IMG/VR virus record: IMGVR_UViG_3300021387_001709
Coordinates: 64,001 to 128,000 of that record
Length of the DNA stretch: 64,000 nt
DNA from: a virus
Lineage: Duplodnaviria; Caudoviricetes
Direction: 5' to 3' (one strand)
Shown: positions 1 through 54,501 of the stretch, in pieces
How positions within the stretch are numbered: position 1 is the stretch's first letter
Layout: every line of letters begins with the position of its first letter
Program-made: the position numbers and the translations under genes
Notes under the pieces: generated by a model
What the model was told of the DNA's origin: nothing
Databases searched by the model: none
What the model saw: only the letters and a program-made list of their open reading frames with translations

Positions 1-310
1 GAGCGCCGTCAACTCCGGAACGACTTACATTATAAATAATCGCAAATTTCCCGTCGCTGTATACAGTGCGAGTTCTTGTCCAGAGCCATTCGCCGTCGGC
101 AACATTAGGCAATTCAGTGCTCCAATTTCCCTGCGTGAGGACAATTCCATTAATGTCGGTAATAACATTGCCGTCTTTATCGGTAAACGGCGCCCCAGGA
201 GGTATTGTACCGCTAGAAGAAACGGCATATTCAACTATTGTCTCAGCTACTGAATTTCCGTCCTATACATCAATCACTGACGTTGAACTCATTGCTAATA
301 TTTTAGGCAT
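1..310 (-). CDS. Tail fibre / host-specificity protein, N-terminal part (runs off the window)
   Basis: GAAGGAGGTGA RBS, ATG at 310, TAG at codon 16 read as Gln: MPKILAMSSTSVIDVQDGNS...WSTELPNVADGEWLWTRTRTVYSDG. WST..P....G.WLWTRT is typical of Firmicutes siphophage fibre repeats. Confidence 0.7.
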
Positions 311-367
311 TATTTGTCACCTCCTTCATAATAATCATTTTTTTCATCCATATGCCCCCTAAGCCGA

Positions 368-2851
368 TTATTCCATTTCGCTCACTTCACAGAAGAACTG
401 CATGCGACCGTTAATAATTGACGGATCTACATACTACGCTCTCCCTGTTTTCCATGGGGTAGATGAATCTAACATATCGCCTTTATTATCTACTCGATAA
501 TATGAATATACATATGTATCATTATCAACCGTAGTTGCGTTAATCCATTCGGAGCCGGTATATTTTTTCAATACACAACTTTTTTTAGTTCTGTCAAGAT
601 GATAATAGTAATCACCGACTACCGGACTCGAAGGCGGTGTATCCGTAAACGTTGTAGTTTTGATTGGATCTACTTCAGTCCCATTTCTATATACCCTTGT
701 ATAAATAGCGCCAAAACCCTGGCTATTTTTAAATTCGGCAATTGTCGCTCTCGTAACCGCACTGATCGGGTCGGTAACATCATCAATGGTACGATAATCA
801 CTATATGTTTTACCTTTGTAAGTCGCCTCACATTTGAGCCACATTTGATCAGTCACCATCTGGGGGGTAATTGTTATCGAACTACCGGTCTGCCCGGAAA
901 TTGTCGTATACTGTCCACCTTTAAATTCCTTCCACACAAACGTCGCACTCTGTGTTACATCATCCATACCGGAGTTAACGATAGCAGTAATAGTAGTACT
1001 TTTGCCTTCTTCAACATTGCCGCCGTCATCACTCATTAATCGTAATAACACGGCATTAACTCCGTTTGGTGCTTGTTTACTTTTAGTCCAGGTATATTTA
1101 TAATCTACGTGCTTTGTAAGCGCCGTTAATCCAATGGTAATATCGCCGGTCATCATTGTGGCAGATCCAAATGTTGCACCGGATGCTATAGTCAACACTA
1201 ACATTCCGTCAGCGGCTTCCGTACCCTATGAATTGGTTTTTACCGACACACCTATCGGAAGAGTGTCAACCGATGCAGCAACGGGTACCCTGGTAATTCC
1301 CTTATACGCATAAAATGGGATACTAACATCACGAGAAGCCAACGCAGCCCCCTCTGTGTCACACGGTATAACATCCGAGTAATTACCGAGTCCCATACTA
1401 AGACCGTCAGTTCCGTCTTGTCCGTCTTCGCCGGTTGCACCATCTCTCGTAATAACAACCGACTGGGTGTCGAGTTCCTATGTAGTTCCGTCTGACGCAT
1501 AAAGCACACAGCGAATAACTAAAACGTTTTCATCTGAAGGGGTGTATATTGTGGAGTTTTCATTAGATTTACTGGTATACTTCGTAGTAAACGTAGTGCC
1601 ATCAGTTGATTCACTAATAATAAAACGTCCGCTATAATTACTCCTTACCAATGCATTGCCGACTTTTGTGTACGCATTAAATGTAACCGCCGACGGGGTA
1701 TATTCCTTGGCTTCGCTCAAATTGAGAGAGTAAGAATTAGGCTCAACCTCATAAATTACTGCGTCTTTACCGTCCTGACCGGAGTACTGTTTAGAAATGG
1801 TAAATCGTTTTGTCAACGGAGAATAACCGGTTCTTGTACAGTTAAAGTCAGCATAAGAACTGTCGCCGGTAAGTCCGCTCGGTGTAAAAATATGTGTGGA
1901 TGCATCATATGTGCCCTCCAGACCCGTACCAGGTGTTACGTTAATAGTCCAATTTGACGTTGTTTCGGTTCCACCCTCATAAATGTGGATTTCGGTCTGA
2001 GAACCCGCCCAAGAGCGAATAGAGCCGTCAGAATTAGCCGATAAAACATGGTTTTCATTGCTAAGAACAGCAGCTACCGTAGCATTACCGGCAGCACCGT
2101 CTTCAATCTTGACAATTTGCGCCAAATCAAAAACCGTAGGGTCATTGGTCGTAACTTTAATAATTGCCGTCTTGCCATTAATCCAAATATCCTATTCATC
2201 GTGACGAACGGTTAACGTACTCTCTGTAATAGACGGATTATTGGTATTCGGGAATGCCGCAAATGTCCCGTCTGATTTTTTATATTGCCACTAACTTATT
2301 TGACAATTTGAGAAATCTGCCGTCAAAGTAATAACTCCGGAGCCTACTATTTTTTTACCGGTATCATACAAAAACGCATTTTCTCCTGTGATTGTTACTG
2401 TTTTTAATTCAGAAGCCATCTTTACGAGAGAATAAGTGAGTGATGCCTCTGCTTCAATCGGAATTCCGGTATCCGGGTCTCTATAAACAACTTTGCAAAC
2501 ATATGTGAGCTATCCACCGGATGCGGAAGATAACTTATTAGCTTTAACCGTAAGAACCCCACCGCTGACCGTCTCCCCTGTCGTTAATGCGGTAGCATCT
2601 CCTGTTCCTTCTCTTCGTGTAAATGTAATCGTTAGTCCTGTCGCATTAAGCGCAAGATTCTGGCCGTTATATGATATAACGGGCGTTATCTTTAAGTTAG
2701 TTGATGCCCAATTAGGTGAATATGTTCCGCCATTCTAGTTGGGATCATAGATAACACTGTTAGGCAAATTACTAGTGCAATAAAAATTAAGACTGCCGAC
2801 ATCAGTAATGTCACTTACGCTCACGCTTGAAAAAGCTTGCACCTTAGCCAT
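368..2851 (-). CDS. Minor tail / receptor-binding structural protein, 827 aa in code 15
   Basis: Track ORFs 434..1204 and 1478..2125 share one frame with ATG 2851 and TAA 368, separated by TAG codons. Thr/Ser/Gly-rich beta-sandwich-like sequence with GxDG linkers, downstream of the tail tip genes. Confidence 0.75.
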
Positions 2852-2868
2852 ATTTTATATCCCTCCTT

Positions 2869-5800
2869 TTAATTCGATGTCACCGTGATATCTTCATACT
2901 CGAACGTACACTAAAAATCAGCATTCACTTTTACATCGTTTGCCGTAATAGTAATGGTTTTTGTCCCGATACTATGCCGAATGTTCCAATAAGTGTCCGC
3001 GTCGTTATCACGGCTTGTTCTTGTCCAAGTAAAACATGACGCATCATACTCATCTGTTACGTCAACATTATTTTTTAATAATACAGCAATTAATTGTATG
3101 TCTCCTCCAAAAATATTGGTTCCATTTGGAGTCTCTATAAACAAGCTATAAATAGCTTTATTTTCTAAATCCTATCGCAATGTAGTAAGAGCATTGGACG
3201 TGCCATTTTTAAACTCTGTATAGTCAACGCCAAAACTTCCTCCTCCGGTAGTAATCTATTCTATAGATACCGTATCTCCCTATTTCATAACATTAAAACT
3301 AAGTTTATTTTCAGAAATTGTATTATCATGAATCATATTATTCACAATCAAACCGTCTGCAACCGCATCAGCCGTAATTCCACTAGGTTCAATAATCGTA
3401 GCACCATTTTCATTCCTCAATACCAAACTCGGTTGCCCGTTGGTCGCATATCCAAGCTGTACACCAACGTAATCATTCCCCTAGGAGTCTGTTCCAAGAA
3501 TCTGTAATGCCTACCCGTTCATAACCATTTTTCCATTCTCAGATATAATCCTCATCTGATCGCTAACCGTAATATCGCCGGCTGCGAGATCACCAACCGT
3601 GATTTTTCCGGCAACAGCATCATAAATATAAGCATCGGTAATTGTACTGGTAGCAGCAGTGGAAGAGAGTGCTTGCAAACTTCTGATAAATGCATTGCCG
3701 ACATATTCCGTCTCAATGTTTGCCACATCAATAGTAGCAAGTTTTGCCTTAAGGTCTTCCACCCGAATTTCGGACGCTACGACCAATGTACTTTGTAAAT
3801 ACTCAATAAAAGCGGTGTCAGCGGTCAGTCGTTCTACGTCAGCTTCCGTGGCTGATAATAGAGCAGTAATAACGACATCTGCATTTATTTGATGTGCCTC
3901 AATGTACGGAGCTATTAATTGTGCAAATTCTGCATAATCACCGGTTATTTGGCTAACGTCAATAGATGCAGCAGAAATGCTGTTTGATACCAGATTATTA
4001 ATGGTAGCTTCTCCGGCTTCAAGAATATTAGCCGATAACTGGTCAAAATCACCGCTCTGTGCTTGCAATAGCTTTGTAACTATTGTATCGCTTTCGAGAT
4101 ACTTTGTAATTACCTCGTCAAAATGCCCGGATTCTGCGTTAAGCAATACGGTAGTAATAGATTCGGCACTTAATCGACCTGAAAACAATTCATCAAATTG
4201 TGCCTATGTTCCGGTTATATGATCGACCTATACGTTTGTATTCCCCATATAAGTAGATATTAAATTATTAACTTCTGTGGTATTTGTTCCACCAACCACG
4301 GACATCGCCTAACTTCTTACAGCATTAGTAAATAATCCCGACCTAGTCATCCATGTGAGCAAGTTCGTCGCGTATTCTTCATCACTCTTGGAGGCGCCGG
4401 TTCCCAGTGAAATGCTATTCTTTTGTCCTCTATTATTTTCATCGTCTATTATTTGAGTAAAATCATTACGCCCGCTCTTAGAAGTTATCATAGATGAAAA
4501 CGTAAGCTATAAATTCTCATCTACTTCACATGGGTTGTATTCTATTTCAATTATTCTCAGTTTAACACTGTAGTCATCACGGATTCCTAGCCTAATAAAT
4601 CGCATTAGTCTAAGGTCTTCATTCCAGTCCGCAAATTCCGGAATACGGAGAAGATTATCCAACTCCACCGTAAACTGATATTGAGGTCTGGACACCTCAG
4701 ATAATTTACTCATTGCATCTTCATATAACTCAAGCTGACGGTCTATCATCGTTGAGGTATCATCTAATGACGTCGAAAAAATATTAGAGTTTGTATAGTC
4801 GGTGTCTATGAACAACGTTTTAATATAATTTATTTCGTCTTCGGTAAATCCTATCTCATTGTCATATATATCAACAGCTGTCTCAAGTGCAGCTCCTTTA
4901 TTATAATAATTAATATAATCCTCGGCTGTTTTAAGAAGACGCTGTTCTTCCTTGATTTCATTCTCCAAATATGCCTTACGTTGCTTCATTTGCTAAATCA
5001 TTTCCTAAATATGGAGATAGTCATTACGTCCCTAAATATTATATGCTGTTTCATTTGCATAGTTAGTTTTTTCTGCTGCGGTCATCTAATCCCATGGTTT
5101 GGCAAAATGATTAAGAGCCGGGAGCTTATCTAGTTCATAATTCTTCAGCTTGCCTTCAAGTTCATATAAACCATAGAGTTCCCAGTTTTCTTCGCTTTCC
5201 TGACCATAACGAATTTTCTGATCGTTTGGAAGATTTTCATTAAGCATCGCCTGCTTTATATACGGAATAATGTATGTGACAATTTCCATATAAGTATAAT
5301 AACCACCCTAATTGGCTGCTTTAAGTAATTCCAAATATTTTTGATGATCAACCTCTCCGTCATCTGTTTTATAAGGAATATATTCTCCGTCTTTATCATA
5401 CATTTCTTCCGGTTCCCTAGTGTCTACGGATGTTTGCAAAACAGCCAGTTTTGCTTCATTTAATTTAAGGTGTTCTTGCAGTGCTTCCATGCTCATATTA
5501 TCCCATTGTTTCCAATATGTATCGTCACTCGGAACATGGTATTGTAATTCGTCTATAATTGCGGCCTGTTTTGCAGCCTATTTATGCCATTCAATCAAAC
5601 TCGGTTTCCGATAATATTCCCTGAATGCTAACCACTTATTAATTTTATCAATCAGACTTTGGTCCATGTATGGCTCTGCCATAAAATATGATAGATCAAA
5701 ACATTGATCGTCACCAAAATTGACAATAGTAGTAGTCAGATCATTTTCGCCGCGAACACGAAACCTCGTATAAACACTGTCTTCATCTACTGATATATCT

Positions 5801-6513
5801 ACATTTTTTGCAAGATTTCGGTATCCAATAAATATATTAGTATCAAAATCGAGGTTCTCTTTTCCGTATGCGTTAACTGTTCGATTAAGATAATCAAAAA
5901 TGAATATCAATCCCAGTCTGGGAGCAACAGTGTTGGTCATTATTGAATATATATTTGCATTATCAACTTCAATGATGGGGATTTGCATTTTATAAAGACC
6001 ACGGTCAATATGTCCAATGCTCCAATATGGCAATTTAGTCAACATTAAGTGAAGAAATGACAATTCCGGATTATCGGGATTATAGAACGTAACAAACTCC
6101 TTCGCTACTCCTAGGTCATTTATGTTGTCAGTTGCCAACATTTCCAGACTGTCTTCTTTTCCACAGTTTATTTTTAACCCTATCCAATCTTTTTGTTCAA
6201 ATTCTTTTTCAAGTGAGTAAGCCTACACTTCTTTATATTCATAATTTCCATCGTTATGAACTGTCGGCTCCTACATTTGGAAAAAACCGATACCCTCAAG
6301 TAATAAATACATATATATCTTAAGGTCTTCGTATCCATTTGATTCAATTAATTCTCCGTCTATAGATAAATAACGATCTACATTAAAAGTCAACTCATCG
6401 TAATCTTTCACATACTGATGGAAGTCAACAGAATTAGTTTGCAAACCGTTAAGAACTGTTCTGATTTTTAAATCCGGAGTACATAAATATATTTTTTTAA
6501 CGTCCTAAATCAT
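2869..6513 (-). CDS. Tal-like tail tip / tail spike protein, 1214 aa in code 15
   Basis: Seven same-frame track fragments joined through TAG. Starts ATG ATT TAG and ends TAA 2869. Lies after Dit and contains I.A..I.A spike-like repeats. Confidence 0.75.
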
Positions 6514-7419: not shown

Positions 7420-10400
7420 TCAGTGTCCTGCCTTGCGCATATCTTTGCTCATTTCTTTTGTAGTATAGTTATATATATTCTTTTTAAATGAGGCATTGCT
7501 CATCAATCCCTTTGCTATTTCTTCAAGCTGCGGAATAATGGATTGATCGGCATTACCGTCTATTTTTATTAAGTTATCATAATGTATATTAATACTCTGA
7601 TTGGTATTATGACTAACATTGTACTCTGGTACTTGGAAATTCGGTGTTTGGACCGGAACCATACCGGATTTTGCCATTTCCATAAGGTTAGCCGTAAGAT
7701 CTGCAGGAATTACTCCGTCACCGGCTTTTAATGGCATAAGCATTACGCCGCGACGTGTAACTATTGCCTCTGAACCATTTTCATTAATCCTATGCAAACC
7801 CGGTTTTGCGTTCTTTGTTCCTTTTGCGTACCCATCTTCAAGTATCTCTTCTACCGGGGCCTCTCTAAGCACAAACCCTTTTCGGAATATATCTCTGATA
7901 TCCCCAACATCTTCCCGGATTTTCTGAGCTTGATTCTGGATATTGTTTTGGTATGCATATTCTTCCTTGGAAAGATTATCGTCATAATGAGGGACATAAC
8001 TGGTTATACCGCCGGGTCTTCTGAGTTCATTGTACTCGAGATTCTTCCCTTTTGTCCACCCAGTTTGAATATTGATAGCATCCGCTACCTAATCAATTTC
8101 TTCCATTCCTAATTGCCCCGCATAAGCGTCTGGATGGAATGATTTAATATAAGCATTGAATGAGTTATCAACATTTTCTAACTGAGAAGAAAGATTGTTT
8201 ACGGAGTCTTTTACAAGTTCTATAGCATCGTCGAGGTTAACAGCCAGATCTTTTACATATTTTTCGAAGTTCTCCTAAAGCTATGTTTGAAGATCTGTTA
8301 ATCCTTCAACTCGAAGATTGACTATGTGTTCTTTTACAGTATCGTCAAGTTCTTCTTGCATTTCCGCACGTTGTGCTTCGAGACGTGCCTTTTGAGCGCG
8401 ACTCTCGGCATCAGTTAGGCCATTTAGTGCGCGGATTTGCTGCTCGATAAGCTATACATCTTTATTTTGTTTTCGTAGTTTCTTATCATAATCATAAAGC
8501 TCTTTGCGTTTATTCAACTCGTTCTTTCTGGCATCAATTAGCTTGTTAATATAAGTAATTTCTGTTTGATACCTGTCGGTTATGTTCTTAATAATGGTTT
8601 GTCTTTGCGATGCTAAAGTAGCCAATACATCTCTGCCTTGCGCCTCGAGTTCATTTTTACGCTTCGTATATTCTTCAAGGCTGTATGACTCATCAGACCC
8701 AAACAAATCATTATTCTATCTTATTGCGGCGGCTATATAAGTATATTCGTCTTGCGCTTCCTTATAAGCGCGTAAATCCATGGCGTATTTATCAATTCCA
8801 AGCTGAGTAAACACACCGTCGGTTGTATACATCATATCTGGGCTGATTAATCCCTTGAATTGCTCTGTTGCTTTATGCAGCGTTGCGAACTGATTAATTA
8901 CATTATCAATTGCCTTGAAGTAGACGTCCTCACGAAGTGCGTCCTATACTTCTCCGATATCTATCTCTAAATCGACTATCTCTTTGCTCGTATTGTTAAT
9001 TTCTGTCTGCATTTTCTTCCATTCTTCGCTGCCTTCAATGATTCTACCGGATGATACTGCATTGGCTAATTCGTCGGTAAGTGCTCGCCTCTGATTATAT
9101 AATGCAGAGCGCATGTCTTTTATTTGCTGAATCTCTTCGCCATAGCTATCTACAACTCGCTGAGCATCCGATCCTTTATTTATCTTCATAACCGGCTTAT
9201 TTTTTGTAGAAGTATTAAAAGTAACACCTCTAAGCATACCTTTTTCGCGGTTAACTGTGTTTCCGGCGTATCCACGTTCCTACCACAATTTACGAGTTTG
9301 AGTTGTTATACTTCTAAGCCCATCAATATAATCTATTGTAGCTTCATACCAGTTTTTAATATTCTCAAATCTTTCTTGCGCAATCTTTTGTTCTCGTTCG
9401 GCTGTTTCAAGTGCAGCTTGATTGAGTTCTTCTTTCATTTTGGACTCTTGATCTTTTGCCTGAGTGAGGGCAGTAGTAACATTTTCTAATGATACCACAC
9501 TATTATTCCACAATGCGGCTACATGAGCCAACGCATTAGAAACTTTTGTCGGGTCTATCTTTTGCCCTTTTTTCATAGCTTCATCAATGATAGCTTTTTC
9601 GGCTTTTGTTGCGGCTTGGTACGCTTTGTCGCTCTTGATACTCTTTGCCCTATCAGTCTATGCTTTCTGAAGTTTTGCACGTTGTGCTTCGAACTCATCG
9701 GTGACACTTTCTTGTTCTCGTAATGCTTTTAATCGTTCCTATAGCTATTTCTTCATTTGTTTTAATTCTTCTTCTAGGTATTTATTCTGGGTTCTAAATG
9801 TCGGCACTTTTGAGTCCGCCGAAGCATCCGCGTCCATAAGAACTTTTGCCTAATCAGAAATTCTCTGTTGTTCTGTTGCCACTGCCTTTTTATCAATCTC
9901 ATTTTGCTTTTTAGCACTTTCCCAATTAGACCTTGCATTATTCTATGCCGCTTTTGCCGCAGCTTGTTTGGCAATTTTATTATTATAATCATTTACCAGA
10001 TCTTTAAAATGATTACCCATCCAACTTTGATGTTCAATACGTTTACCCTGCGATATTAATTTAAGAACCCAGTTTTTATCCTTTGCCTTTACATTGTTCT
10101 TGTTCATGAATTGCTTAATATTATTAATGGATGTCTTGGTCATCGATTGACGTTTTTCATAGTCGGATTTTTTTGTTTCATATGTATTCCATCTGGTGCT
10201 TCTCGCAGTCGCGGATTTATTTTCGACTTTCTTTTTCTCCGCGACACCCGTTGCAAGATCTATCATTCGTTGTGCCGACGCAATGCCGGATCTGCCGCTG
10301 GATATCGCACTTGTTATTCCGGTGATAGTATTAATTCTATTTTCAACTTTCTCTAATGCCTGCTCAAGCTTTTCGGTCGGTAGCTGAATAATCTGGTCTT

Positions 10401-13400
10401 GTAGTTCTCGCATTGTATTTGCTAATTCTTGAATTGCAGTATTTGCTTCACGAGCTTTATTAATATAATCAAGGTAAGCCCGTGCGCCTTCAACAAGTGC
10501 GGCATCGTCCGGATTAGTTGTATCAATAATATCAAGGTTATACTCTCCGGCCAATAATTTTTCTCTATTGAATTTAGTCCAAATATTTGCAGTCTTTTTA
10601 TTTCCGTCTTTATCGGCATAAGAGTAATTAGTTGCCAATTGCTCTGCGAAATTTGCATATGTTGTAGCGGCGTGAGAGTTAGCTTTAATTTCATCCTAAA
10701 TAGCTGTAATTTCTTTGCGGAGAAGTTTTCCTTTAGTTACTTTATTTACGTAGTCGGTAATCTTATCGGCAAAATATTTTGTTTTGTCCGCGAAATACTG
10801 AAGGCGAATTTCCACATAATCAAAGATTTCCTATGAAAACTGCGGTTTATCTTCCTCTTGCGGTTTTTCATCTCCGCCGGTGCCTGCGTTTCCGCCACCG
10901 GTGCTTGCTGTTTGAGTACCGCTACCAACGTTTACGTTGTTGTTATTTCCGCTAACACTAACTCCGGATTGTCCACCACCGCCGCCGGTCCATGTAAATG
11001 TTCCACCGCCTCCGGGAAAGGCATTCGTTAATTTAGATAATCTGTCAATTGTCCCATAAGCATAACCTCTGGCAGAACCAATAACTTTACCAATTCCGCC
11101 GTTCATACCGCTGAGTATTGCCCTAAGCTATGAATTGTTGAAAATTATATCTCCGGATTTTAACTGCATAAAATGAGCGCCGCCAGGAATAATACTGAAT
11201 TTACCGTCTCGTACTAATCCCTCCGGACCAATTTCTCCTACTAAAGCAGTTTGATCTTCTTTTAGCGCAATATCTCCCTTTGCATGAGAATCATATTCTT
11301 CATCTTTCAGAATACCTTTATCCGTTATCGTCCCTTTTGCAAATGTCTTTGATATATTATTTAAAGTTCCGGTTGCTCTGGCAACTGATTGAACAGTACC
11401 GGTAGCACCAGATTTAGTTTTCCCGCCGCCTCCTGACTAGACCGTATTAACATGGATTGTTGCTGTCATGGCATTGATTCTCGACACAGCGGCATGAGCA
11501 GCAAGCAATGCATTGCCGGTTGCAGCACCGACATGTATCATTGGATTTAATCCTTCAATAGTATTTGCAGCAGAACGAGCAGCAAGAATAGCATTTCCGG
11601 TCGCAGCTTCTACATGCATTGTCGGAGTCATTCCGTCAATTGTACTCTTTGCTCTGTTAGCGGAAGCAATCGCTTTGTCTGTTTTTGCTTCGACTTTCAT
11701 TTCCGGTTTCATGGAATCTATTTCTTCTTTTACCGAATCAACCTAATCCAACGCCTCTTCTGGATTAACTTTAATATCAATTGGATCGGTGTCTCTGATA
11801 CCATCAATTGCAGTTTTTAACGATTCAATCTATGAGGTAGCGCTATCAATATTTAATTTGACTGGAATATTAGATGCTTCAGCTTTTAATGCATTAAGAG
11901 CAGTGGTAGCAGCATTGGTATCAAGTGACGCTGACGTGGAGGATGTCTACTTATTGCCACCACTAAGAAAATTAGAAACAGCACTAATTGCGCCTCCCAC
12001 GGCGTTTTTAGCTTTCTGAATTACTTCAACTATAGTAACTTTTTTTGTCGCTGGTTTCTCCGCCTCCGCTTGAACTTCATCCTAACCAGTAGCTTCAAGT
12101 TTAACTTCCTTTGTGTACTCCTCGCCATTAATCGCAGCACTAACAGCTTCATTAATCCCCTAGAGAGAACCCTCATCTAATCTTACGGGCATAGATATTT
12201 CTTTTCCGTCGAGAGAATCTATCATTGCTTCGGCGGTTTCAACATCAGATGTATCTATATTTAGAGTGGCATCAAGAGTTCCATCATTCATCGATTGCTA
12301 TAATTCTTCTAATGAACCTCCGTCTTCAAGATACTGTTCTATTGCAACTCGCACGTTATACTCCTACTGGGTCTTTGCTTCAAGCTATTCAAGCTATGCG
12401 AGTGCTTCTTGACCGCCTTCTTCTTCAACATTTATTTGAGCCTTCATCTAGTCTATTTCAGCTAATTTATTCGAAAGTTCGTCCACGCTCATTGTCGCAG
12501 CATCAAATTGAGTTGCTCCCTCAAATTGAGTACCTTTAAATAATGCCTCCACCTTATCGGTAGCAACAGTAGCACTATCGCTAAATTGATTCATACTGTC
12601 GATTGCTCCGGCAAAATCAATTACGCCTAAAGCGGCGAGGATGTTCACCAACTATTCGCCCTAAGCAGAAGATAAGTTTGCTTCTTTAGCAATACCCTCA
12701 AGGGCATCCTCAGCAGCTTCGAGTCCCTTAACATTATAGTCTCCATCTCCCAGCTTAATCTATTTGAGTTCATCATACGATATCCCTTTAAGAGCGTCCG
12801 CATATTCCATAACCGCATCTTTTGCGTTCTGAATTTTAGTTTTGCCTGCTTCAAATGCGGAGAACTCAGCGGTGTGTGGGTCTATTCCAAATGCTTCAGC
12901 GCCAAGAGGAGACTCCCACGAACCAATTTTACCCTCGAGGTCTTTCATAGCGGCATTATAAGATGCTTCATCAACCTCGAAGTCAGCATTTACTTTAATT
13001 CCATAATCATCGGCTAAATCTTGTGCCTCACGGAGAAAACGATTTGCGCTTGCTTCGTCACCGCGCTCCATTGCATCATCATAATATGATTTAAGGTCTG
13101 CAATACTACTCTTGAGATTCTTAAGGTTGCTTACGTATTCCTATGCTTGTCCTCGCTAGAAATTTTGAGTAGCTGTCTGTACGGCATTCAGCTATCCTTG
13201 ATACTGATCAATGACATCCTACTGAATCGCCAAATCATCGGCGCTTGCGCCTTCACGCTTCATTTCGGCATATTTAAGCTATGCATTGGTAAGCTCATTA
13301 GTCCATTTCTATGTCTGAAGTTGAGCGTCTTCCATGGAGGAAACGAACGCACCCATTCCGCCATATTCTTCGGCTTTGCCAAACATGTCACGGAACCATT

Positions 13401-35641: not shown

Positions 35642-35671
35642 TCCTTTTAATTCCTTCCTTGAAAAAATCGT

Positions 35672-35770
35672 AAAAAAAGGGGACAGCCACAAAATGAATG
35701 TGTAGTCGTCCCCTAATATGTGATCCGGTCATGCCGGTTCACTCCGTATTTTATAATCACATTCACTAAT
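35672..35770 (-). promoter_or_regulatory. Terminator hairpin with an upstream loop-complementary sequence
   Basis: GGGGACGACTAC...GTGGCTGTCCCC plus T7. Loop CACATTCA is complementary to upstream TGAATGTG. Confidence 0.5.
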
Positions 35771-36250: not shown

Positions 36251-36264
36251 TATTCTTTTCCTCC

Positions 36265-37539
36265 TTAAAAATTAATAATAGGTTTTTCGATATCTGTATC
36301 TATAGTATTTAATTTCATAACGTCAATATAACTATATATGTCAAACGGTTTATCAATACCGTGTTTCTTTCTTATCTCATTTATATACTCCTGAAGTTGC
36401 TCTGGGGTATTGTTTTTTGCTCCATACTTATGATGAAACGAACCATATATAAACATATTATGATATTTTTTATCCAATATAATGGTGTTCCACTCTTCAA
36501 ACATATATTCTGGATATGTTGACATGGGATATATATGATGTAATTCCAGATTATCTGTAACTGTATTGGTAATATAACAAACGGATCCATATTTTTTAAT
36601 AATTGAATCTCTCCAATGTTTATACGGTTTACTACTTCTAATCCTTTGATTTAGTGTTTTTTCTCCGCCTTTCCAGTTGGGATTATTTTCTCCGGTATAA
36701 TGCCAGCCACCGCCACAGGTTTTGGCGTCACCTTTTCGTAAAACACTACCTCTGATACTTACATCGTTTCCACATGAACAATGACAAAACCAATACGGTA
36801 CTCCGTCAACGGATTTATCAAAAGCCGTTACGGTTAATTCCCCATATTGTTTTCCTACTAAGTCAATAAGACCAATCCCTAATCTGGCACACTCAGGACA
36901 TTCAAAATGTTTAATTTTAGACTGAGCAATTTCTCTTAAGTAATCATCATGTTTCCCATTATTGCATTTCCAATACACTTTTTTATTTGAATTACAATAA
37001 TAATCATATGGAGTCATTTCATTTTTATTTGACCAATAAAGAATGCTGTCTGGGTATATGACTCCTAAAGATTTTTCTTTTTTTACAGCGGCATCGTTCG
37101 GAATCCATTTACCTTTTGGCCTAAAAAATCTTTCTGGAACAATTGTTTTTACTCCACCATTATCCAAATCATTTATTTTAATATCAATCTTAGACCTAAA
37201 GCTAATATCCCATGGGGTGAAACCATTGTCTTCGTTCCAAATTTTTTCTAAATAATCAATGCCATATTTATCTATAACATGTTGGGCAAAACTAGAACAT
37301 GCTCTACATGCCAGTTCTTGATGTTCTCCATTTAACCTCCCAAGTGGATATATTTTATGTGATTCACTTTCATGAATACCCCTTGGACATTTTAACCAAA
37401 CATCTTTTTCAGAACCCATTGATAATTCGCCTGGACTAAAAGCATTCTTTTCATAATCCCACCTATTTAATAAATCGAATCTAGAATGATCGTTACACCA
37501 TTTATCAAAATAATATTTTTCTTTCTTTCCCATTTTCAT
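36265..37539 (-). CDS. Free-standing HNH endonuclease with repeated zinc-ribbon DNA-binding domains
   Basis: Repeated W...KN...P......S.K.V.W.C...H modules, NPNWKGG motif, and C-terminal LELHHIYP...N...H. Confidence 0.8.
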   Translation of the reverse strand: MKMGKKEKYYFDKWCNDHSRFDLLNRWDYEKNAFSPGELSMGSEKDVWLKCPRGIHESESHKIYPLGRLNGEHQELACRACSSFAQHVIDKYGIDYLEKIWNEDNGFTPWDISFRSKIDIKINDLDNGGVKTIVPERFFRPKGKWIPNDAAVKKEKSLGVIYPDSILYWSNKNEMTPYDYYCNSNKKVYWKCNNGKHDDYLREIAQSKIKHFECPECARLGIGLIDLVGKQYGELTVTAFDKSVDGVPYWFCHCSCGNDVSIRGSVLRKGDAKTCGGGWHYTGENNPNWKGGEKTLNQRIRSSKPYKHWRDSIIKKYGSVCYITNTVTDNLELHHIYPMSTYPEYMFEEWNTIILDKKYHNMFIYGSFHHKYGAKNNTPEQLQEYINEIRKKHGIDKPFDIYSYIDVMKLNTIDTDIEKPIINF

Positions 37540-42927: not shown

Positions 42928-45201
42928 TCAAGCGTTATCAATAATCACACCAAACAGCTCATCAATAACAACGCCGATTCCCTCGTAGTACCAGATCTCA
43001 GCTTCAATTGTACGATCCTGAAGAGAGCCGTCCATTCCACGTTCGAAGTATTCTACGTCGCCCTCATTAACTCTCTTAATCGGTTTGAAAGAGTCATCAA
43101 TCGGAACGATGAAAATCTTCTTATTATCATTAGCGGTAAAGATAGAGGTACGAGTGCCTTCCTCATTTACTCTGTCAAGAACAAGACAATCATAGCCTTC
43201 CCACATTCCAAGCATACCTTTTTCATGGAGTTCCTGTTTCATATCATTACTCCACATTTTGTAATTCACGGTATTCTGAAGTTTCTGCATTGCAACACGA
43301 GTACCTACAAGCATAACATCCTTACCGGTTGTAGCTTTAACTGCCTCAATTTTATCAATGATAGAATCTTTAGTAGCCTCAGTAATTGCAATACTAGCTT
43401 TCATATCAGCCGGAAGATAAGAGTCAAGGCTCATGAATGCAGTATAAAGCGCAGAATAACGATGTTTTTCGATGCTTCTATACATAAGGTCTACCATTTC
43501 GGAGAAATCAACCTTGCCAAGCATAAACATCTCAAAATCAGTATAAACTTTAATTACATACGGATAAGTATCAATCGAGAATCCTTTTCCCGGAAGGACT
43601 TTCTGACGTACACTTTTTTGTTTAACATATATTATTTTTCCAAATTTTTATCATCAAATATAAAATGCCAATGGTATCCTCCGCAGGTATGACGTTCACC
43701 ACGGCAAGCTTTTAGAATTCCTCCGCTTTCCAGTTGTAATTCCTTTGAAGCAGTAGAGGCATTTATATATTCCATATTTAACTCTTCACAGAATACTTTA
43801 GTATAATTTTTATTATAAGGTTCGTAATGTTTCTCTTTTTTCGCATCACTTATTTTCTTTTTTGTCTCCTCTGTATGATGCTTTCCATACATAACATTAT
43901 TCTCACCAAGTATTCTTTCTTTATTTAAAGGATTTTCCCAATAGCGTCTTGTAGTCTCACTCCTTCGTTGTCTCAAATCCCCATTTTCATATGAGCGTTT
44001 AACGGACTCACTCATTTTATTTTTTATTTCATCCGTATAATATGAGGAGCAATTCTACCCACCTGTTTTTTTATTATATCCATACTTTCTGTTTAATGCG
44101 TTATAATATTCAATATAATATATTTCTTTTTCATCAAGTTCATTTGCATCACATTCCTCTATAATATAAAAAATGAAATTATTTTCTCCATATTTATTCC
44201 AAGAATTCTGCAAATGACTATTCCCATGATAGTTTGACTTCAATGCATTTTTATGTTTTCTCCATCTGTCATATATATCATGTGCCTATCCGACATATTT
44301 TTTATGATTAACTATATTTTCTATACAATATATCCCAGATATTATATCTTTCTTCATTATTACCTACCTTTTTTATATTTGGAAAAATAATTTTATTGGG
44401 GTCGCTACTCCCAGTTCGGTTTAAAACCGCTCAAGCTTTCACTTGAGAACAGACTATATCTTTTTCGTTAAATAACGAACACACCATTTCCATTTAAGGG
44501 GTTTTCACCCACCCGCTTGGGCCGTACTCCTATTGTCACATTATATGACCATGGGATAGTCGTTGAACATTCTCTTATTTAGAGCTTTGCTGCTGATTGC
44601 CCATTACCAAAACAACAGGGGATTTAACCTCGTTGTCATACAATTAATTTTTTCTACTTTCGTAACCATCACATTTGTACTTATTCATTACTCTGTTGTG
44701 GTTTAATTGTCTTTGGGGTTTCCCAGCAATTAGATGTGTATTTTAACATACAGCTTACGCTATACGGACACTGTTTTAGCCAATGTCATGATGATTGCCA
44801 GCCCATTTGCTAACCTGAAGAAGAGCAGTATTATTAGCTGTGAAATAATTCATATCACCGCGAGCAATATTAACATCCTCTACATAGTTCATAAAACGAG
44901 CATTCGTAGAATCCCAGCCGGAAACCATCTTGTCAGCAAGGACATTTTCGATTACAGAACAGATCTCAATGCCATGTGCTCTCCAAGCCTGTCTACGCTC
45001 CATACGTTTGGCATTCTTAAAGTCAATACCAAGAATCTTATTAAACTAGTTACGAATAATCTCAGAAGTCTGAGCCTTAGAATATTTTTCATAAACACCA
45101 TTTGTGGCGTCCATCATAAGATCGTTGAACTGAAGCATATTCTCATAGTTATTATCAAATTTTGCAACAACATTATTGCTAAAGCATGTAATATCTTTCA
45201 T
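42928..45201 (-). CDS. Major capsid protein (SPbeta YonB-like), join(44783..45201, 42928..43612), 367 aa
   Basis: Position after scaffold and decoration genes. One TAG in exon 1. Splicing gives WAGNHHDI|VRQKVLPGKGFSIDT. Confidence 0.8.
43613..44782 (-). mobile_element. Group I intron (1170 nt) in the major capsid gene, carrying a homing endonuclease
   Basis: GACAU|UGGCUAAAACAGUGUC P1/P10. P7 elements GTTCAACGACTATC and AAGATATAGTCT. Terminal G. Confidence 0.88.
43632..44357 (-). CDS. Intron-encoded GIY-YIG homing endonuclease with NUMOD3/NUMOD1-like domains, 241 aa in code 15
   Basis: SGIYCIENIVNHKKYVG(TAG=Q)A...RW..H, GYN..GG(TAG=Q), MYGKHHTEETKKKIS, C-terminal CGGYHW. Confidence 0.88.
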
Positions 45202-45919: not shown

Positions 45920-47629
45920 TCATTTCCTAGAATTAAGAAGCCCATCTAAAAACGAACTGTTATGTTCTACCCTTGCAAATGCAAAGAAATCTTTCTTCGG
46001 TTCTTCTTTCTTCTCGGAAGTATCTGCCGCAAAATTTAACTTACCGGCCTTTGCATACTGAAGCAGAATTGCGTCAGCTTTATCTTTGACTTCATCAACC
46101 GTAAGATTAAAATAATTCTCACGTTTCTTAAGATCTTCAAATTCCTGAGTACCGGCAATACTTGTATAATCTGCGGAATTAAGAACTTCAACCTTCTCCG
46201 GTTCAGATTCATATTTAGCAAGTTTATCAGAAATATCAGAATAATTACTCTTCATAGACTCAAGCTGAGCTTGCTCGTCCTTGCTTAAATACGTACAGAA
46301 CACCTCGGTGCGATCACCCTTTAAGGAATATACATCTTTCTTCACCTGATAAGATTGACGGTAATGTTTCCCATTCCAATAATCATGCATATACACGATT
46401 TTCTCATCTTCCAGTGCGTCCACGTCATACCAGGCATTATCGCTTTCTCCGTAAGTGGAATTCACAAGCTCATAAAGTGCGTTAAGTTTCTCCATCAGAG
46501 TAGAAGAGAACGTCTTTACTTCACCGTTAAAAGACACAGTTTTGTTAATACTATATTCCTTCTGCTGACCATTGTTTAGAACACCGTCATCAGTTACGGC
46601 GTCTTCCGGTTCTTCTTCCTCAGAATCGTCGGTGGTGTCTTCGTCATCAGAAGTGCCTTCGCCATCCGAATCATCTTCTCCATCAAATTCATCAACCACT
46701 TCGGGAGTTTCTTCGGTAACTTCTTCATCCACTTTTTCAGAAGATTCTGTCTCGGTAACCTGAGTTTCCTCATCAATGGTTTCATTCAATTCGATGTTTT
46801 CTTCCTCAATAGTCTCATCTGCTTTGTTTTCATCAAATTCCAAACCATGTTCCTCCTTTCTTTGGTCGTTATTTATATGATTATCAAGCTTATTCATAAC
46901 AGCTTGCGTAATCTCATCAATCAATTCTGCCTTATTAAACATAACAGAATTATTTTCGGCGCTAAAATCAGCAATATCTAATCTGGCGCCCTCCATGCCT
47001 TCACCAATTTCTTCTCCGGAAACGGGATCTACTCCGAGTAATGTGGCACCTAACACAACCACATCTTCAAGGACAAGTTCCTTCTCCTTTGAATCATAAG
47101 ACATTTTATTTACACCCAATTCAGCAGAAAGTTTCGTCCCGCCTTTGCGTTCAATTATATCGGCAGCAGCAGTGTAGTTTCTCGGAATTGCGCATTTCGC
47201 AAACAAATATTTTCTGTCTTCATGCTCAGAATCCTATTCGATATAAGGTTTATCTGCTGTAAAGCATCCCACTTGTTTTTCATAGTATGTAATAGAACCA
47301 TCATCATTAAACTCAAAATCGTGAGAAGTAAAATCCAGTTCTCCGTTTACATCTGTAAAATTTGCAAGAATCGGTTTATACGCAACAGTAGAAGCGCTAT
47401 TCTTCAAACCTTCTTCTGTTAAATTTGACCGGTTTTTGTTGCGTCCGCAATGCATCAGCTTAACCGTACCAATTAACAAAGAATCATCTTCTGAATCTTC
47501 CTTATCAAATACCGCCGGCACTTGTACACTTAGCTGATATCCAGTCTCTTTCGAATCAAAAGAATTAAAATTCTGCTATTCACAAAATTCAATTAAATTC
47601 TCTAATGTCAGAATTTTCTTCTTCAACAT
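45920..47629 (-). CDS. Prohead protease/scaffold (YonD-like), 569 aa in code 15
   Basis: Track fragments joined by TAG. MHCGRNKNRS and KLSAEL protease-type motifs, followed by a long acidic scaffold region. Confidence 0.75.
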
Positions 47630-47676
47630 ACTTCCTCCCTTCTTTTTAGAATTTCTCTCCAAAGAATAGGAGAGTA

Positions 47677-47859
47677 TCAAAATGTTATTTTATTCGTAAA
47701 ATTTAACTTCATACCGTCATCAGCGGAAAACGTCAAATTAGTATTATTAATAAATACCCATTGACTCCCTTCTTTCGGAAGTTCTTCGTAACCGAGTTGG
47801 CGCAATTTCTCGGCGGTTTCCTCATCAGATGTATGAATAAAAAATTGTTTATTTCCCAT
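47677..47859 (-). CDS. Small hypothetical protein
   Basis: AGGTGA RBS before MGNKQFFIHT. Confidence 0.6.
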   Translation of the reverse strand: MGNKQFFIHTSDEETAEKLRQLGYEELPKEGSQWVFINNTNLTFSADDGMKLNFTNKITF

Positions 47860-48095: not shown

Positions 48096-48818
48096 TTATC
48101 TCCTTTTATAATTTATATTTTCAAGTAATAGTTTATATTTATCCGGAAGTTCATTTAGACGATACCAAAAATATCCGTAAGCCTTGTGTGTTTTACTAGT
48201 AATAGTATAGGCTAATTTTAACGTTTTCTATTTAAATTCTGGATTTAAAGAAATAATTATACTCGGTGAATCATATACACCTATTATTTCAGTACAAGCA
48301 TCATTCATCTATATGATGCCACCGTATTTTTGCTTGAACTTAAGCGTACATATCTCACTGCTTGATAACCATTTAATATTATGTTTTAGTAATATTTTTT
48401 TAATCGTTTCGGGTGATACCTAAAAATATTTCGCCGTAAGACCAGCTATATAATTATTCTATATATGGATATTAATAACTTTCTCTTCGTCCAAATTTAA
48501 ATAACTTTTGCCATCTCCGCCGAGAGTCCCATTATATCCCTTACAATCTTTGTATCCTACATATGCACGATATTTTTCAATGTAATATTTTTCTCTATCA
48601 CATAAATACTAACCATTTTCAGCTTCTTCAATTACATCAAAATGAAAATGCTCTACGCCATAACAATTCATCGCGTCATATAAAGGGCGCTTTTCAAATC
48701 TCCGGCGCTTATAATCACTCTAGTGTTCTTTCCATCTATCATAAGGATTATTATCCTCTGTTTTCCCAATATAAACTTTATCATTAATGTCGCAAGTTAT
48801 TTTATAAATCCAACCCAT
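48096..48818 (-). CDS. Free-standing GIY-YIG endonuclease, 240 aa in code 15; missed by the track
   Basis: MGWIYKITCDINDKVYIGKT...RW.EH...GYNGTLGGDG and C-terminal AYGYFW. At least six in-frame TAGs, AGGAGG RBS. Confidence 0.8.
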
Positions 48819-48928: not shown

Positions 48929-49000
48929 CAAGGGCGCCAGGTGCCGTCCCCGGTCCTCGCGGGTTAGAGCCGCGCGCACTAGCTGGTATGCTACGCCCCT
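48929..49000 (-). tRNA. Amber suppressor tRNA (anticodon CUA)
   Basis: Cloverleaf: AGGGGCG/CGCCCTT acceptor, GCAT/GTGC D stem, CGCGG-CTCTAAC-CCGCG anticodon arm, CCGGG/CCTGG T stem, G73. No encoded CCA. Confidence 0.88.
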
Positions 49001-49517: not shown

Positions 49518-51098
49518 TTATGCTATTTCAGAACCAGTATTTCTACTTCTTTCAGCACTACCGCTTAAATCATCGTCATCTGATCTAGGTCTTCCGACAG
49601 TATTACTGGAAGTATTATAACTTGATTGTAGTGGCTTCATCATATCCTTAATACCAATAGCATTCTCAAACCTAATCTTGTTGATTGCTTTATACGGTGT
49701 TCCTTCAACAACAGATAAATAATCCAATGCCGGGCCGCCAAGTGTCGCGGAGTCTTTATATCTCTGAATATAATCATCCTCGTTAAACCAGGTTATTCTC
49801 AGTATTTCAAAGATATATCCCTTTGATATATTTTCTGCAATATAAAAATTCAGCCAAGATTCTAACCTATTTACCCAGACCCACACATTTGATTGATCCG
49901 CAAGCTGAGCAAATTTAATAGCCAGATTAGAAGTAGAATTACCGCCGGACACAACTGTTTGTGTTAATCCGCTGTTAGAAAACAGATTATTTATAGATTT
50001 CGCTAACGCATCTGTATCCGACGCATGTGACGTGTCATTAAACGTGATTTTATCGATATCAAATGGAGCAGTAATAACACCGACCAAATCCGGCACTGAC
50101 TGTTCCTCAAGCTGTCGAAAATAATTAACCATCTCCATTGAGATAGCAAAATCATCAACATCCCCGCTATTACCATTGTCCACTAACGGTATCTTATTCA
50201 CAATCAAAGCATAATTCTCAAGTTCTGTTTTAGATTGAAGAATCTGCTACAAATCAAGCAAATCTAATAAATCCGTAAACAGCGGAAGAAAATATGGCAA
50301 TGGGAAAGAGAACTCATCTTCCGGACCAATTAACAAAACACAACATTTTTCGGGAGGTAATCTAAACCATTGATAATCTCGTCCGCCATCCTTATATGAA
50401 CGATATCCGTTAATAAATACTTCATCCCATGTTGCATAACTTCCTTGTCCGTCAACTCCAAGGACAAACTCACTATTGTTGGCTGCATCAAAAAATGCCG
50501 CATTAAAATACACAACCCACTCGCCATACTCATTTTTTCCTACAATCCTACAATACTGAACATCTAACGGCATTAAAAATGTTCTTCCCTATTTATTCTC
50601 GTAAACATACCCAGCATAAAATCCGTCACGGATTGCAAGATATAATGCGGTATACATATCTTTTTTTAGGCTGAATTTATCAAAAGTCTCGAGTACTTTT
50701 TGATAACCTTTAAGTGCTTTATCAACATCTATATCTTCAGACAAATCATTTGCTTGAGTAATTGTATAATAGAACAACGGCATCGCCGCCATATACATAA
50801 TCATTTTTTGATATAACATTGAGTTCCTGACTAAAAATCTCGAAATTTCTCGAAGAGTATCTTGATTGTTAGCCGGAGACTAAACATATGTTTTTACGAG
50901 ATCTTTAGTGTATTGCGTGAAAGTTCTGTTTACAGACCTAGTGGCGTTACGCTGAAGAATTTCTTCCATTTTTGCGAATGTCATTGTCTGCGCACGTTCA
51001 CGCTTATATGAAAAATCCTCCACATCCGTGGGAATTGTAGTTATTTTAGTTTCATTATTTTTGGGGCCGCGGTCAGCGGTTTTCTTTCTTGTTGCCAT
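49518..51098 (-). CDS. Portal protein (YonE-like), 526 aa in code 15
   Basis: Four same-frame fragments joined by TAG, immediately after the terminase. C-terminal PLQSSYN..GRP motif. Confidence 0.8.
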
Positions 51099-51113: not shown

Positions 51114-53171
51114 TTATTTAAATCTGGTTACTTTTTTGGGTTGACGGAATGTAAATTGAGAAAATAGCTATTGTGGATCTTGATTTTTAGGCTTTTTCAA
51201 AATATCACTTCTACGTTCTTGAAGTAAAGCCCATCCAAGCAAAGCGCAAGTATATGCGCGATCATCGTGCATTTTATTTGCCTTTTCCGGTGTTAATTCA
51301 AAAGAATCTTTGCCTGTATCTCTCTTCTTCCTCACCATATTTACCAATTCTTCTTTTAATATATCTATATTAACAAGACCAATTTCATCTCGCCAATCCA
51401 ACTTAATAGTTTTCGTTTTTACCGATTGTAGTTTATTAAGTTCCTCTTTTAACTTTTCTTCAAACTCTTTCCCTACAATCTTTTGTTTCTTTAATTTTTC
51501 AGTTATCTTTTTTGTCTCTTCATCAATCATTTTCTAATCAACATCAAAAACAGTAAGATATCCTTTATGATCGTAATTAGCGGTAAAACTAATTTTATTC
51601 TAATTTAACATTTCTATAAGTGCTTCGTACATCTACGATTTATAAGCACTTGGATTCATCATATGGAGTTTTCCCTAAACCGCGTCCGGAAATCTTTTAA
51701 CGTACTCCTCAGAATATTCCTTATCTATAAAACCTCTGTGTTCAACCCCGGCTTTATCGACCCAGTTTTGCATTAACATATCCGCAATAATTGGACCACC
51801 CCCACCAGAACCGGCATCTATATAAATTCCAAGAATATTATCATAATTATCAGCACCACCATTATAATCAAGAATCATTTGTCTTAAATATTCAACTTGA
51901 TCCGGTGTTTGCATAGGTGATTTTATTTTTTTACCTACGTCTAACAGATTAACTAAATTAACAATTCTCGCTTTATATTCCTTCGACCCATCAGGAAGTG
52001 GAGATTCGTAACGCTCAGCAACTAAAACTACAGAATTATCTCTCATCCTAGCTGGATCATAACAAATCCAAAATTTCCTATTACCGATATCATTACTATG
52101 AACTGGTTTTCTCGTTTCTTCGTTACGAGTAATGACTCCGCGCTTTACAATAGCATCAGCTCCAGCCTCTGTGGTAAATTGACAATAATATTCTCGTCTA
52201 GCCTTTTCGGGATTTGTTCTCATTTCATAATCAACTGTTGAGCGAGATAGAAGAGGAGCAACAAGTTCTCCTCTAATTGTAGGTTTAAATGCCAACTCAC
52301 AATCCATATGAAGAACAACATACTCCGGATTACCCATTATCATATTTTTCGCGAATTCTCTATATAACCTATAGAATGCAGTATCCGTACTACTTGCGGA
52401 ACTAATATATATTTTTTGATATCCAATTCCTTGTGGAAAACATCTCTATCTAATTGGGTCTATAGATTTACCACTAGCGTCCTTACCAGTTTTAAGATTT
52501 TTATTTACAGCAGCAAACGCTCCATAAACGTTCATCAATTCATCAGATAAAAATCCACTTTCATCAAACACAATCGTGCCTCTGTAGCCACGGTGTGCAT
52601 CTATATTAGCATTTAACGTTTGGGAAAAAGAACCATTATACAAAGTATATTTAAAGCCGTCGGAAGAATGGCTAAAACCATCTCCAGACGCATTGCTAAT
52701 GACAATCTCATCCTTAAATATCTTTCCAGTAGAACCTGTAAAGGTATCAATATTATCATTTGCTAATTTTTCAAGAGTAGTGAAAGTATTCTGTGCCTAA
52801 CTACCGGACCCACTAGCAATATATGCCCAATAATTATTGAATAACATCCCCTTAGACATTAACTCCAGATCAATTACTGTCGATTTACCAAAACCTCGCG
52901 TACAAACAAGGAGAGAATTTGGAGTAAACCATGTTCTCTATACGGCGAGCGACTACATATCTAATAACTCAATATTGAAAAAATTATCAATAAATCTAAC
53001 AGGATTACATTGATAATACTTCTGCATTTCTGCAATTGCTAACAAAGACTCAATTTTTCTACTAGACATAGGATAATCAATTGGCTTGACAAATACACCG
53101 TAATCTTTATAAAAGTCCTTGTCATAATCCAAATAGCCAAAATCATAAACTGGAGAAATCAGCGTCTTCAT
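51114..53171 (-). CDS. Terminase large subunit (YonF-like), 685 aa in code 15
   Basis: Walker A CTRGFGKS, Walker B IVFDESG, nuclease YDPAR and HDDRAY. The Q-motif Gln upstream of Walker A is encoded by TAG (ELLDM*SLAV). Confidence 0.9.
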
Positions 53172-54501
53172 TTTCGTCGTCCTCCTCGTTTTCATCATTG
53201 GCAAAAACAGAATATAGATCTCTTAAATTCCTATATTGATTACTAATATCAATTCCTTTTTCTTCTAAATAATCTTTAAGATCAAGATTCTCCTAGAGAA
53301 GTATTCTATTAATCTCTTTATATGAATTACATTCTTCACGAAGTTCTTGGATGGTTTTTCTCATAGTCGCAACCATATCTGACCATTCTGACTCATCAAG
53401 AGCCAATTGCTTCATAAGAGAGGCATCGGCGATTTCTTGTACTTGCTACATACCTCGACAAGTTCCAATATCAAAACCGTTTACTTGCCCATCTCTTAAA
53501 TTTAATTCCTATATCTTTTTAAGTTTTCCGGTCCAAGTGTTTTCGCCTCTGATAGAATGTTTACTGTTCTTTAAAGAAATGCAGCTCTCTTTGGCAAGAT
53601 TATTCACGCTACTCAAAATTTGCGCTTTCATCTATTGAAGGGCTTTGATAGTGGCTATATTCTTTTCAGCATTCCTAAAATCTTGCGATAACTGAGCAAC
53701 CATGTCATCAATATTTGAAGCCTATAAAAAACCACGAACGATGGATATAATAGAAGCAGTTCTCATCATATCATCGTTGCCTTCTTCAGATGAATCTAAA
53801 AAACCTATTAACTACGAATATAAAAACGGCTAGTCGGATAGCTTTTCTTTATCAAAAGGAAGATACCCCAATAACCGCAAAGTGTCATTTTTATTTTTTT
53901 CAAATTGTTCAATAATTTCCTAGTCCTTTGGTAAAGCATTTTCCGCCATATCTTCAAGAGACATTGCGCCACCGGTATAATTGTCAGACTCTCTATAAGT
54001 CATTGTATAATAATTAACCATCTGGATATTTTTGCAATATGAAGTATAAACATTACTTTTGCCTTTCCCAGATGCTCCGTTAGCAGCTTCGAGAAGAGAT
54101 GCTTCCCATACAGTTTCCAACATTGGTTTGTTTAAAAAATACATAGCGTCGTCAACCGTTTGTTTGGTTGGTTGCTATTTTTCTCCATTAACAACTGGCA
54201 GTGCAATTTCTTCCGCACATTGCTTACATCCGTCCGTTAATCCAGATGCTTGTCCGGGAGCAGTAGAAACATAGAATTTATCTTTTGTTTTAACGTGACC
54301 ACAATGCTGACACGTAAAGAATTTACTCCCAACGCCAATCGCTTCGAGTGCTTTTATCTAATCACTAGGTTTAAGCGTATCAAACAATTCGCATAACTAA
54401 TCAATCGTCTTATCTATTTCTTTTAGGTTTGTAGTTTTACCGGCTTCCTTCGGTGAAACCGGCTTTTTCTAACCTTTTTTCACTATTCTGGTTGCAGACA
54501 A
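53143..54501 (-). CDS. Zn-finger protein upstream of the terminase (YonG-like, possible small terminase), 452 aa in code 15
   Basis: GGAGG RBS, TTG start, CQHC...CKQC, many TAGs, overlaps the terminase start. Confidence 0.65.

Follow-up and report, generated by a model that had tools for sequence, protein, structure and literature searches.

Probable reading of TAG as glutamine in the late gene block of a phage of SPbeta-type architecture

We analysed a stretch of 64,000 nucleotides (hereafter the window) that forms bases 64,001–128,000 of one linear virus record of 189,811 bp, IMGVR_UViG_3300021387_001709, a metagenome-derived IMG/VR genome of 38% G+C that CheckV rates as 98% complete. Its minus strand carries a late gene block that runs from terminase to endolysin over ~75 kb, or ~39% of the genome, with the left end at genome position ~43,660, 20 kb to the left of the window. 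In the direction of transcription, the block encodes a 452-aa protein, the large terminase, the portal, a candidate tRNA with the anticodon CUA (tRNA(CUA)), head genes, the tape measure, tail genes and the endolysin (Table 1). As described below, the phage very probably uses two genetic codes blockwise: the standard code for the integrase and for early and replication genes, and a code with TAG as a third glutamine codon in the late block.

Table 1 Features of the window and of one related locus, in the direction of transcription. Coordinates are those of the window unless stated; ORF, open reading frame; aa, amino acids; G001, a related genome described in the text.
Feature	Position	Strand	Remarks
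Standard-code genes	55008–64000	−	no internal TAG
YonO-family RNA polymerase	61593–63278, plus probably 60394–61302	−	phrog_8308, E 2.8e-72
HU-like protein (yonN-like)	59957–60232	−	
yonJ-like exonuclease	55597–56814	−	
ClpP-like protease, PhoH-like protein	within 55008–64000	−	
tRNA-Pro(UGG)	54555–54627	−	early/late junction
Late block, probably TAG-recoded	1–54501, extends left	−	225 in-frame TAGs in 38 ORFs (window)
First late ORF, 452 aa	53143–54501	−	12 TAGs; sits at the place expected of a small terminase
Large terminase, 696 aa	51114–53204	−	9 TAGs
Portal	49518–51098	−	3 TAGs; phrog_2739, E 8e-86
Candidate amber-suppressor tRNA(CUA), 72 nt	48929–49000	−	all 21 stem pairs form
Free-standing GIY-YIG endonuclease	48096–48818	−	6 TAGs; directly downstream of tRNA(CUA)
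Group I intron with GIY-YIG homing endonuclease	43632–44787	−	
TAG-free island inside late block	32944–37539	−	
HNH/DUF4379 endonuclease	36265–37539	−	TAG-free
159-aa ORF	between aminotransferase and HNH/DUF4379 endonuclease	−	TAG-free
Class-V aminotransferase	34261–35436	−	TAG-free
Tyrosine integrase	32944–33960	−	TAG-free; 30% identical to SPbeta yomM, same relative position
Tape-measure gene, three exon-like ORFs	7420–27875 (19488–27875, 18701–19204, 7420–17970)	−	
Tail proteins	368–6513	−	827 aa with 7 TAGs, 1,214 aa with 19 TAGs; phrog_3267, phrog_6211
Endolysin	genome 44,246–45,874 (left of window)	−	5 TAGs; end of late block
Intron-split tRNA(CUA) of G001	L022:4685-5002 = G001:C1:164685-165002	−	extra-arm loop UUCUGAG

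TAG codons in the late block

On the minus strand of window positions 1–54,501, TAG is the sole stop codon that breaks otherwise intact genes, and translating it as glutamine turns this strand into a tightly packed chain of genes. The longest ORF of the window grew from 561 aa under the standard code (code 11) to 3,516 aa when TAG was read as sense, while control reassignments of TGA or TAA gave a longest ORF of 561 aa and 714 aa, respectively, and no giant ORFs. ORF cover, measured with greedily chosen, non-overlapping ORFs of at least 60 aa and with the late block taken as genome positions 43,600–118,520, rose from 0.683 to 0.945 in the late block and stayed nearly flat outside it (0.872 to 0.881); the gain in coding density that a first-pass annotation of the window had proposed as a check of recoding is thus clear, in the late block only.

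Under code 11, 67 of the 129 late-block ORFs stop at TAG; with TAG as sense, 62 ORFs remain and end in TAA (40) or TGA (22), which bears out the earlier reading that fragments end at TAG and true genes at TAA or TGA. The motifs quoted in that annotation all lie on the minus strand, and each asterisk in them is a TAG: LLDM* (52953–52967), GS*AQ (52791–52805), YVG*A (44283–44297), GG*N (44052–44063) and F*NGYQ*NNYQ*PYPQ (31790–31837). Across the whole late block we counted 276 in-frame TAGs in 55 ORFs, with up to 70 in a single ORF. This is a density of 12.2 per 1000 codons and makes up 29% of all glutamine-type codons; neither the base after TAG nor the position of TAG along genes showed a strong bias. 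As had been predicted, standard annotation fragments the virion genes: gene calling with code 11 misses about one-third of the late block and breaks a tape measure of ~6,480 aa into pieces.

The recoding had also been described as genome-scale, and this was not borne out, as it is confined to the terminase-to-endolysin block and the early genes fit the standard code. In-frame TAG occurs in early ORFs at 2.4 per 1000 codons, at ORF edges. Outside the block, the TAGs of ORFs called under code 15 (TAG as glutamine) lie within a few codons of either ORF end, or in shadow ORFs on the antisense strand, and are start over-extensions or true stops. The boundary placed at 54,501 proved correct, with tRNA-Pro next to it and TAG-free genes after that.

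Among the early ORFs (genome positions 1–43,000 and 119,000–189,811), ~15 of 216 end in TAG, and nine of these have a TAA or TGA within eight codons, against ~5 expected by chance; TAG is probably still a stop in early genes, although this signal is weak. Two early loci have tandem TAG-TAG. Such doubled or closely spaced stops could act as back-ups while TAG is suppressed, on the same weak signal.

Residues opposite TAG and a candidate decoder

We compared 12,920 aligned codons with those of a 202-kb IMG/VR relative that is rated 100% complete (G001). In this comparison 108 TAGs were conserved, and 76 of the 113 TAG changes were to or from CAG or CAA. CAG had changed to CAA in 27 cases and to TAG in 26, with no other codon above two, and CAA had changed to TAG 18 times although two substitutions are needed. 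AAG, GAG, TGG and TAY hardly ever exchanged with TAG.

More distant evidence came from the large terminase, for which 475 homologues were collected from 1.8 billion representative proteins. At TAG-84, in the ELLDM-Q motif, glutamine was found in 63 of 67 aligned homologues, and at TAG-136 (GSQAQ) in 79 of 81, so that the residues opposite these two conserved TAGs, whose alignment had been suggested as a check, are nearly all glutamine. Pooled over the nine terminase TAG sites, glutamine made up 30% of residues, close to the 26% at CAA/CAG-encoded glutamine sites, against a background of 3%. The G001 terminase was dropped from the TAG tally, being non-homologous to the window terminase save for its last 26 aa. 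The portals of the two phages are nonetheless 98% identical, a contrast suggestive of module exchange at the start of the late block.

Four relatives on contigs of metagenome-assembled genomes (L082–L085) use the standard code: their terminases, 48–70% identical to that of the window, have no in-frame TAG, and code 15 brings no gain in cover. Opposite the TAGs of the window genome these relatives carry Q 36, E 14 and K 13 times, a spectrum like that opposite CAA/CAG-encoded glutamine. The corresponding tally for the TAGs of G001 was weak (K 10, Q 8, E 7). Codon interchange, distant terminase homologues, standard-code relatives and the phage tRNA(CUA) together give good support to the earlier assignment of TAG to glutamine.

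The tRNA(CUA) lies ~520 nt downstream of the portal on the same strand, past a 135-aa ORF and a terminator. It has stems of 7, 4, 5 and 5 pairs: the seven-pair acceptor stem has A1-U72 and the discriminator G73, and resembles that of tRNA-Trp (AGGGGC..., G73), while the anticodon stem consists of five G-C pairs. The seven-nucleotide anticodon loop, CUCUAAC, has U33, CUA and the purine A37, and the variable loop has 4 nt. No tRNA(CUA) was called in the genome by ARAGORN at its defaults or by the Rfam tRNA model, and relaxing the ARAGORN thresholds returned noise only. Both miss the element because the D-loop and T-loop consensus is absent.

It was recovered by a custom scanner that required cloverleaf stems around U-CUA-R. 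This gave one CUA cloverleaf in the genome, identical in sequence in G002, and none in 30 shuffled genomes, even with two mismatches allowed. The same tRNA lies just downstream of the portal on a metagenome contig, L092, with a portal 87% identical to that of the window; its three differences keep the pairing: C6-G66 is replaced by U6-A66, a compensatory change, and G50.U62 by A50-U62. The cloverleaf has a predicted energy of −29.2 kcal/mol, 1.1 kcal/mol from the minimum free energy fold (−30.3). When IMG/VR was scanned with a 15-nt anticodon-arm pattern, most hits were unrelated sequences and some were canonical suppressor tRNAs; the sole copy of the window type was on the G002 contig. The element is a conserved, covarying CUA cloverleaf and a putative suppressor. 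Its A1-U72, G73, G10 and U35 fit the identity rules of the E. coli glutaminyl-tRNA synthetase (GlnRS).

All recoded relatives that we examined have a tRNA(CUA), whereas the 22-kb loci of the four standard-code relatives yielded none. The syntenic locus of G001 has a different tRNA(CUA), which ARAGORN did find, with a long variable arm and with a 231-nt insert that splits it after U35, in the anticodon loop; Rfam identifies the insert as a group I intron (E 1e-5). An intron-free tRNA(CUA) of this type lies at positions 2462–2550 of L091, ~900 nt downstream of the portal and in the aligned region, with compensatory changes in all four stems. A third type (L001, 3878–3969) lies at the start of the late block, 63 nt beyond the tRNA-Pro homologue. 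All three are type II tRNAs with G73, and the extra arm of each ends in a seven-base loop, YU-(C/U)UG-AR, of the form of a glutamine anticodon loop. Where these relatives have a second, glutamine-type arm, the window tRNA instead has its 4-nt variable loop and degenerate D- and T-loops.

A second tRNA-like element, at genome positions 165,018–165,110 on the plus strand (L088:5018-5110), scores 41.8 bits on the Rfam tRNA model and has a 32-nt insertion in its D-loop. Its anticodon arm cannot make a seven-nucleotide loop, and it sits in a cluster of Leu, Met, Gly and Gln(UUG) tRNAs. We rejected this element as the decoder, as it has no CTA and its anticodon arm is abnormal.

Several observations weigh against a suppressor role for the window tRNA or against the glutamine reading as a whole. 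The D-loop, ACCAGCUA, has no GG (G18-G19) and the T-loop, GACGGCA, no T54-Psi55-C56; there was no RF00005 match at E<=10, and the element scores below ~10 bits on the Rfam tRNA model. It folds no better than shuffled sequence (z = −0.18), stands behind an intrinsic terminator with no convincing promoter found, and lacks the glutamine-mimic arm of its relatives. No domains of release factors RF1 or RF2 (PF00472, PF03462) and no GlnRS (PF00749) were found in the genome. Finally, the bins of metagenome-assembled genomes that hold relatives of the phage are labelled Clostridia (three), Bacteroides and Prevotella, and so disagree on the host and with it on the host's own code.

Competing explanations and a possible late switch

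TAG could be a sense codon for some other residue, or for a mixture such as tryptophan plus glutamine. The E. coli amber suppressor Su7 (supU) is a tRNA-Trp whose anticodon has changed from CCA to CUA and which is charged mostly with glutamine by GlnRS. The window tRNA is like Su7 in A1-U72, its G-rich acceptor, G73 and U35, and its tRNA-Trp-like acceptor would suit a mixed reading of this kind. Serine, inserted by way of a long variable arm, would suit the Ser-like type II form with G73 of the three relatives, and the weak tally for G001 on its own also leaves room for other residues. Against this, TAG swaps with CAG and CAA and not with TGG or serine codons (TGG 1+1 and TCN 5–6 of the 113 changes), glutamine is near-invariant opposite two terminase TAGs, and the long arms of the relatives' tRNAs carry a glutamine-type anticodon loop. 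We consider another residue or a mixture unlikely.

A slightly less probable explanation is that the phage relies on its host, through a host suppressor tRNA, a deficiency in RF1 or near-cognate reading by tRNA-Gln(UUG), and that the CUA cloverleaf is not the decoder. Among TAG-recoded phages, suppressor tRNAs were found in only 40% (Borges et al., bioRxiv 10.1101/2021.08.26.457843), the cloverleaf of the window is non-canonical, and tRNA-Gln(UUG) is conserved in G000 and G001. However, ORFs with 67–70 TAGs need near-complete suppression, for which we judged near-cognate reading by the phage tRNA-Gln(UUG) insufficient in ORFs with 70 TAGs. All examined recoded relatives also have a CUA cloverleaf, which the standard-code loci lack, and covariation keeps the stems of the window cloverleaf paired.

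That the TAGs are damage or artefact, caused by prophage decay or by CAG being systematically miscalled (C to T), is suggested by TAG being one transition from CAG but is already contradicted by the data, and is the least probable explanation by far: the same genes are never broken by TAA or TGA, 108 TAGs are conserved in an independent assembly, CAA-to-TAG changes are common, contigs from several independent samples have a like pattern and early genes on the same strand are spared.

If TAG is read as glutamine through the phage tRNA(CUA), expression might proceed as follows. In an uninfected or newly infected cell TAG would stop translation, and late proteins could not be made, while early genes, including that for the YonO-family polymerase, would be translated in the host's code. 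By analogy with SPbeta, the YonO-like polymerase would then transcribe the late block, so that TAG-laden mRNAs and tRNA(CUA) would accumulate together. A host enzyme would charge the tRNA with glutamine, and the charged tRNA would outcompete RF1, allowing virion and lysis proteins to be made late. Many Firmicutes lack GlnRS. In such a scheme the tRNA(CUA) would be a small switch by which an SPbeta-type phage couples translation of its late genes to their transcription.

Recoding of stop codons in the late genes of gut phages is already known, and our main claim adds a lineage to it and no new principle. Code 15 has been described in crAss-like and Lak phages and in the ‘gemstone’ clades, which include the large Firmicutes clades Sapphire, Jade and Agate; late and lysis genes are recoded there and the integrase is TAG-free, an arrangement interpreted as gating late genes at translation (Borges et al., bioRxiv 10.1101/2021.08.26.457843). 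Proteomic validation of code-15 phages (Peters et al., PMC9523058) and block-wise dual coding (Mgcod, bioRxiv 10.1101/2022.06.29.495998) have also been reported. The phage studied here would resemble those phages in restricting TAG-encoded glutamine to structural and lysis genes and keeping the standard code for the integrase and early genes; it is also like them in having close relatives with the standard code and a homing endonuclease with recoded stops. As for most of them, the search turned up neither a release factor nor a synthetase. It differs in its SPbeta-type backbone, with a YonO polymerase and a giant tape measure, and in the non-canonical candidate suppressor tRNA inside the recoded block.

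What is modestly novel is the non-canonical candidate suppressor tRNA that evades finders, together with the two-armed counterpart, split by an intron, that a sister genome has at this locus. At this one locus the lineage has either a tRNA(CUA) without D- and T-loop consensus or an intron-split form with a glutamine-anticodon arm, and so illustrates two ways in which a suppressor tRNA can evade finders: loss of that consensus, and interruption of the anticodon loop by a group I intron. A hidden tRNA of this kind bears on how recoded phages with no detectable suppressor read TAG. We tentatively suggest, as an idea that may well prove wrong, that the ~60% of TAG-recoded phages with no detected suppressor tRNA often do carry one in hidden form, and that a decoder inside the late block lets YonO-type late transcription flip the code.

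Other genes of the locus and the relationship to SPbeta

The nearest cultured relatives of the portal are those of large siphoviruses of Bacillus, Brevibacillus and Lactococcus, at 25–27% identity. The terminase matches only Clostridioides phages of ~130 kb among cultured phages, with ~25% identity over a third of its length, and a 586-aa protein at 45,920–47,680 had no match in cultured phages. Further along the block, a group I intron at 44430–44787 (67.3 bits on the Rfam model, missed by the gathering-mode filters of Rfam) splits a phrog_4088 gene, possibly a head gene, into 44776–45201 and 42928–43530. The homing endonuclease associated with it (43632–44357, minus strand) has a Pfam GIY-YIG domain and two TAGs.

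The three tape-measure ORFs match consecutive parts of the phrog_4211 profile, contain 138 TAGs and total ~6,480 aa. Rfam Intron_gpI matches lie at 18459–18768 (E 2e-8), at 18015–18411 (E 2e-6) and, weakly, at 19285–19521 (E 0.08), so the tape measure appears to be a single gene split by two or three group I intron-like RNAs. A protein of this length would rank among the longest tape measures known and would imply a very long tail. Fourteen ORFs inside the late block are without any TAG, including the tyrosine integrase, the class-V aminotransferase and the HNH endonuclease of the island listed in Table 1.

On the early side, a group I intron at 61355–61606 (Rfam, 45.4 bits) appears to split the gene for the YonO-family RNA polymerase. 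The downstream ORF, of 302 aa, fits the C-terminal part of the polymerase by size and has no family match. SPbeta yonO itself scores 1220 bits on phrog_8308, the family of window positions 61,593–63,278. Group I introns are also known in SPbeta-group phages.

Compared with SPbeta (NC_001884), the genome gave collinear weak matches: the tape measure to yomI, the exonuclease to yonJ, the integrase to yomM (30%), the terminase to yonF (23%), the HU-like protein to yonN (36%) and a 413-aa protein to the right of the window to yonV (38%). Order and position agree with SPbeta for the tape measure, integrase, terminase, yonJ and yonN, at 21–36% identity. By local tblastn, the portal (at E<=1e-3) and most head and tail genes had no direct SPbeta match. 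The gene order appears to be that of SPbeta: endolysin, tail genes, a giant tape measure (yomI), an integrase-family gene amid the late genes (yomM), head genes, portal, terminase (yonF), yonJ exonuclease, yonN HU-like protein and YonO RNA polymerase. It differs from SPbeta in genome size (190 kb versus 134 kb) and in tape-measure length (~6,480 aa versus 2,285 aa), and SPbeta itself uses the standard code, unlike the late block described here.

The label ‘SPbeta-like’ that the first-pass annotation had given to this phage therefore holds for the architecture and the hallmark genes (YonO-family polymerase, yonJ- and yonN-like genes, yomM-like integrase and yomI-like tape measure), but identities are only 21–38%. 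As protein matches are only weak, similarity falls short of the genus level for Spbetavirus. ‘SPbeta-type architecture’ appears to be a fair description, and the gene comparisons place the phage as a distant relative outside Spbetavirus. The Firmicutes host named with that label is plausible, as every cultured relative infects Firmicutes, although the bin labels of the relatives conflict.

G001 and G002 have a tRNA-Pro(UGG) identical to the one at the early/late junction, which has C33 rather than the near-universal U. The copy in L001 has U33.

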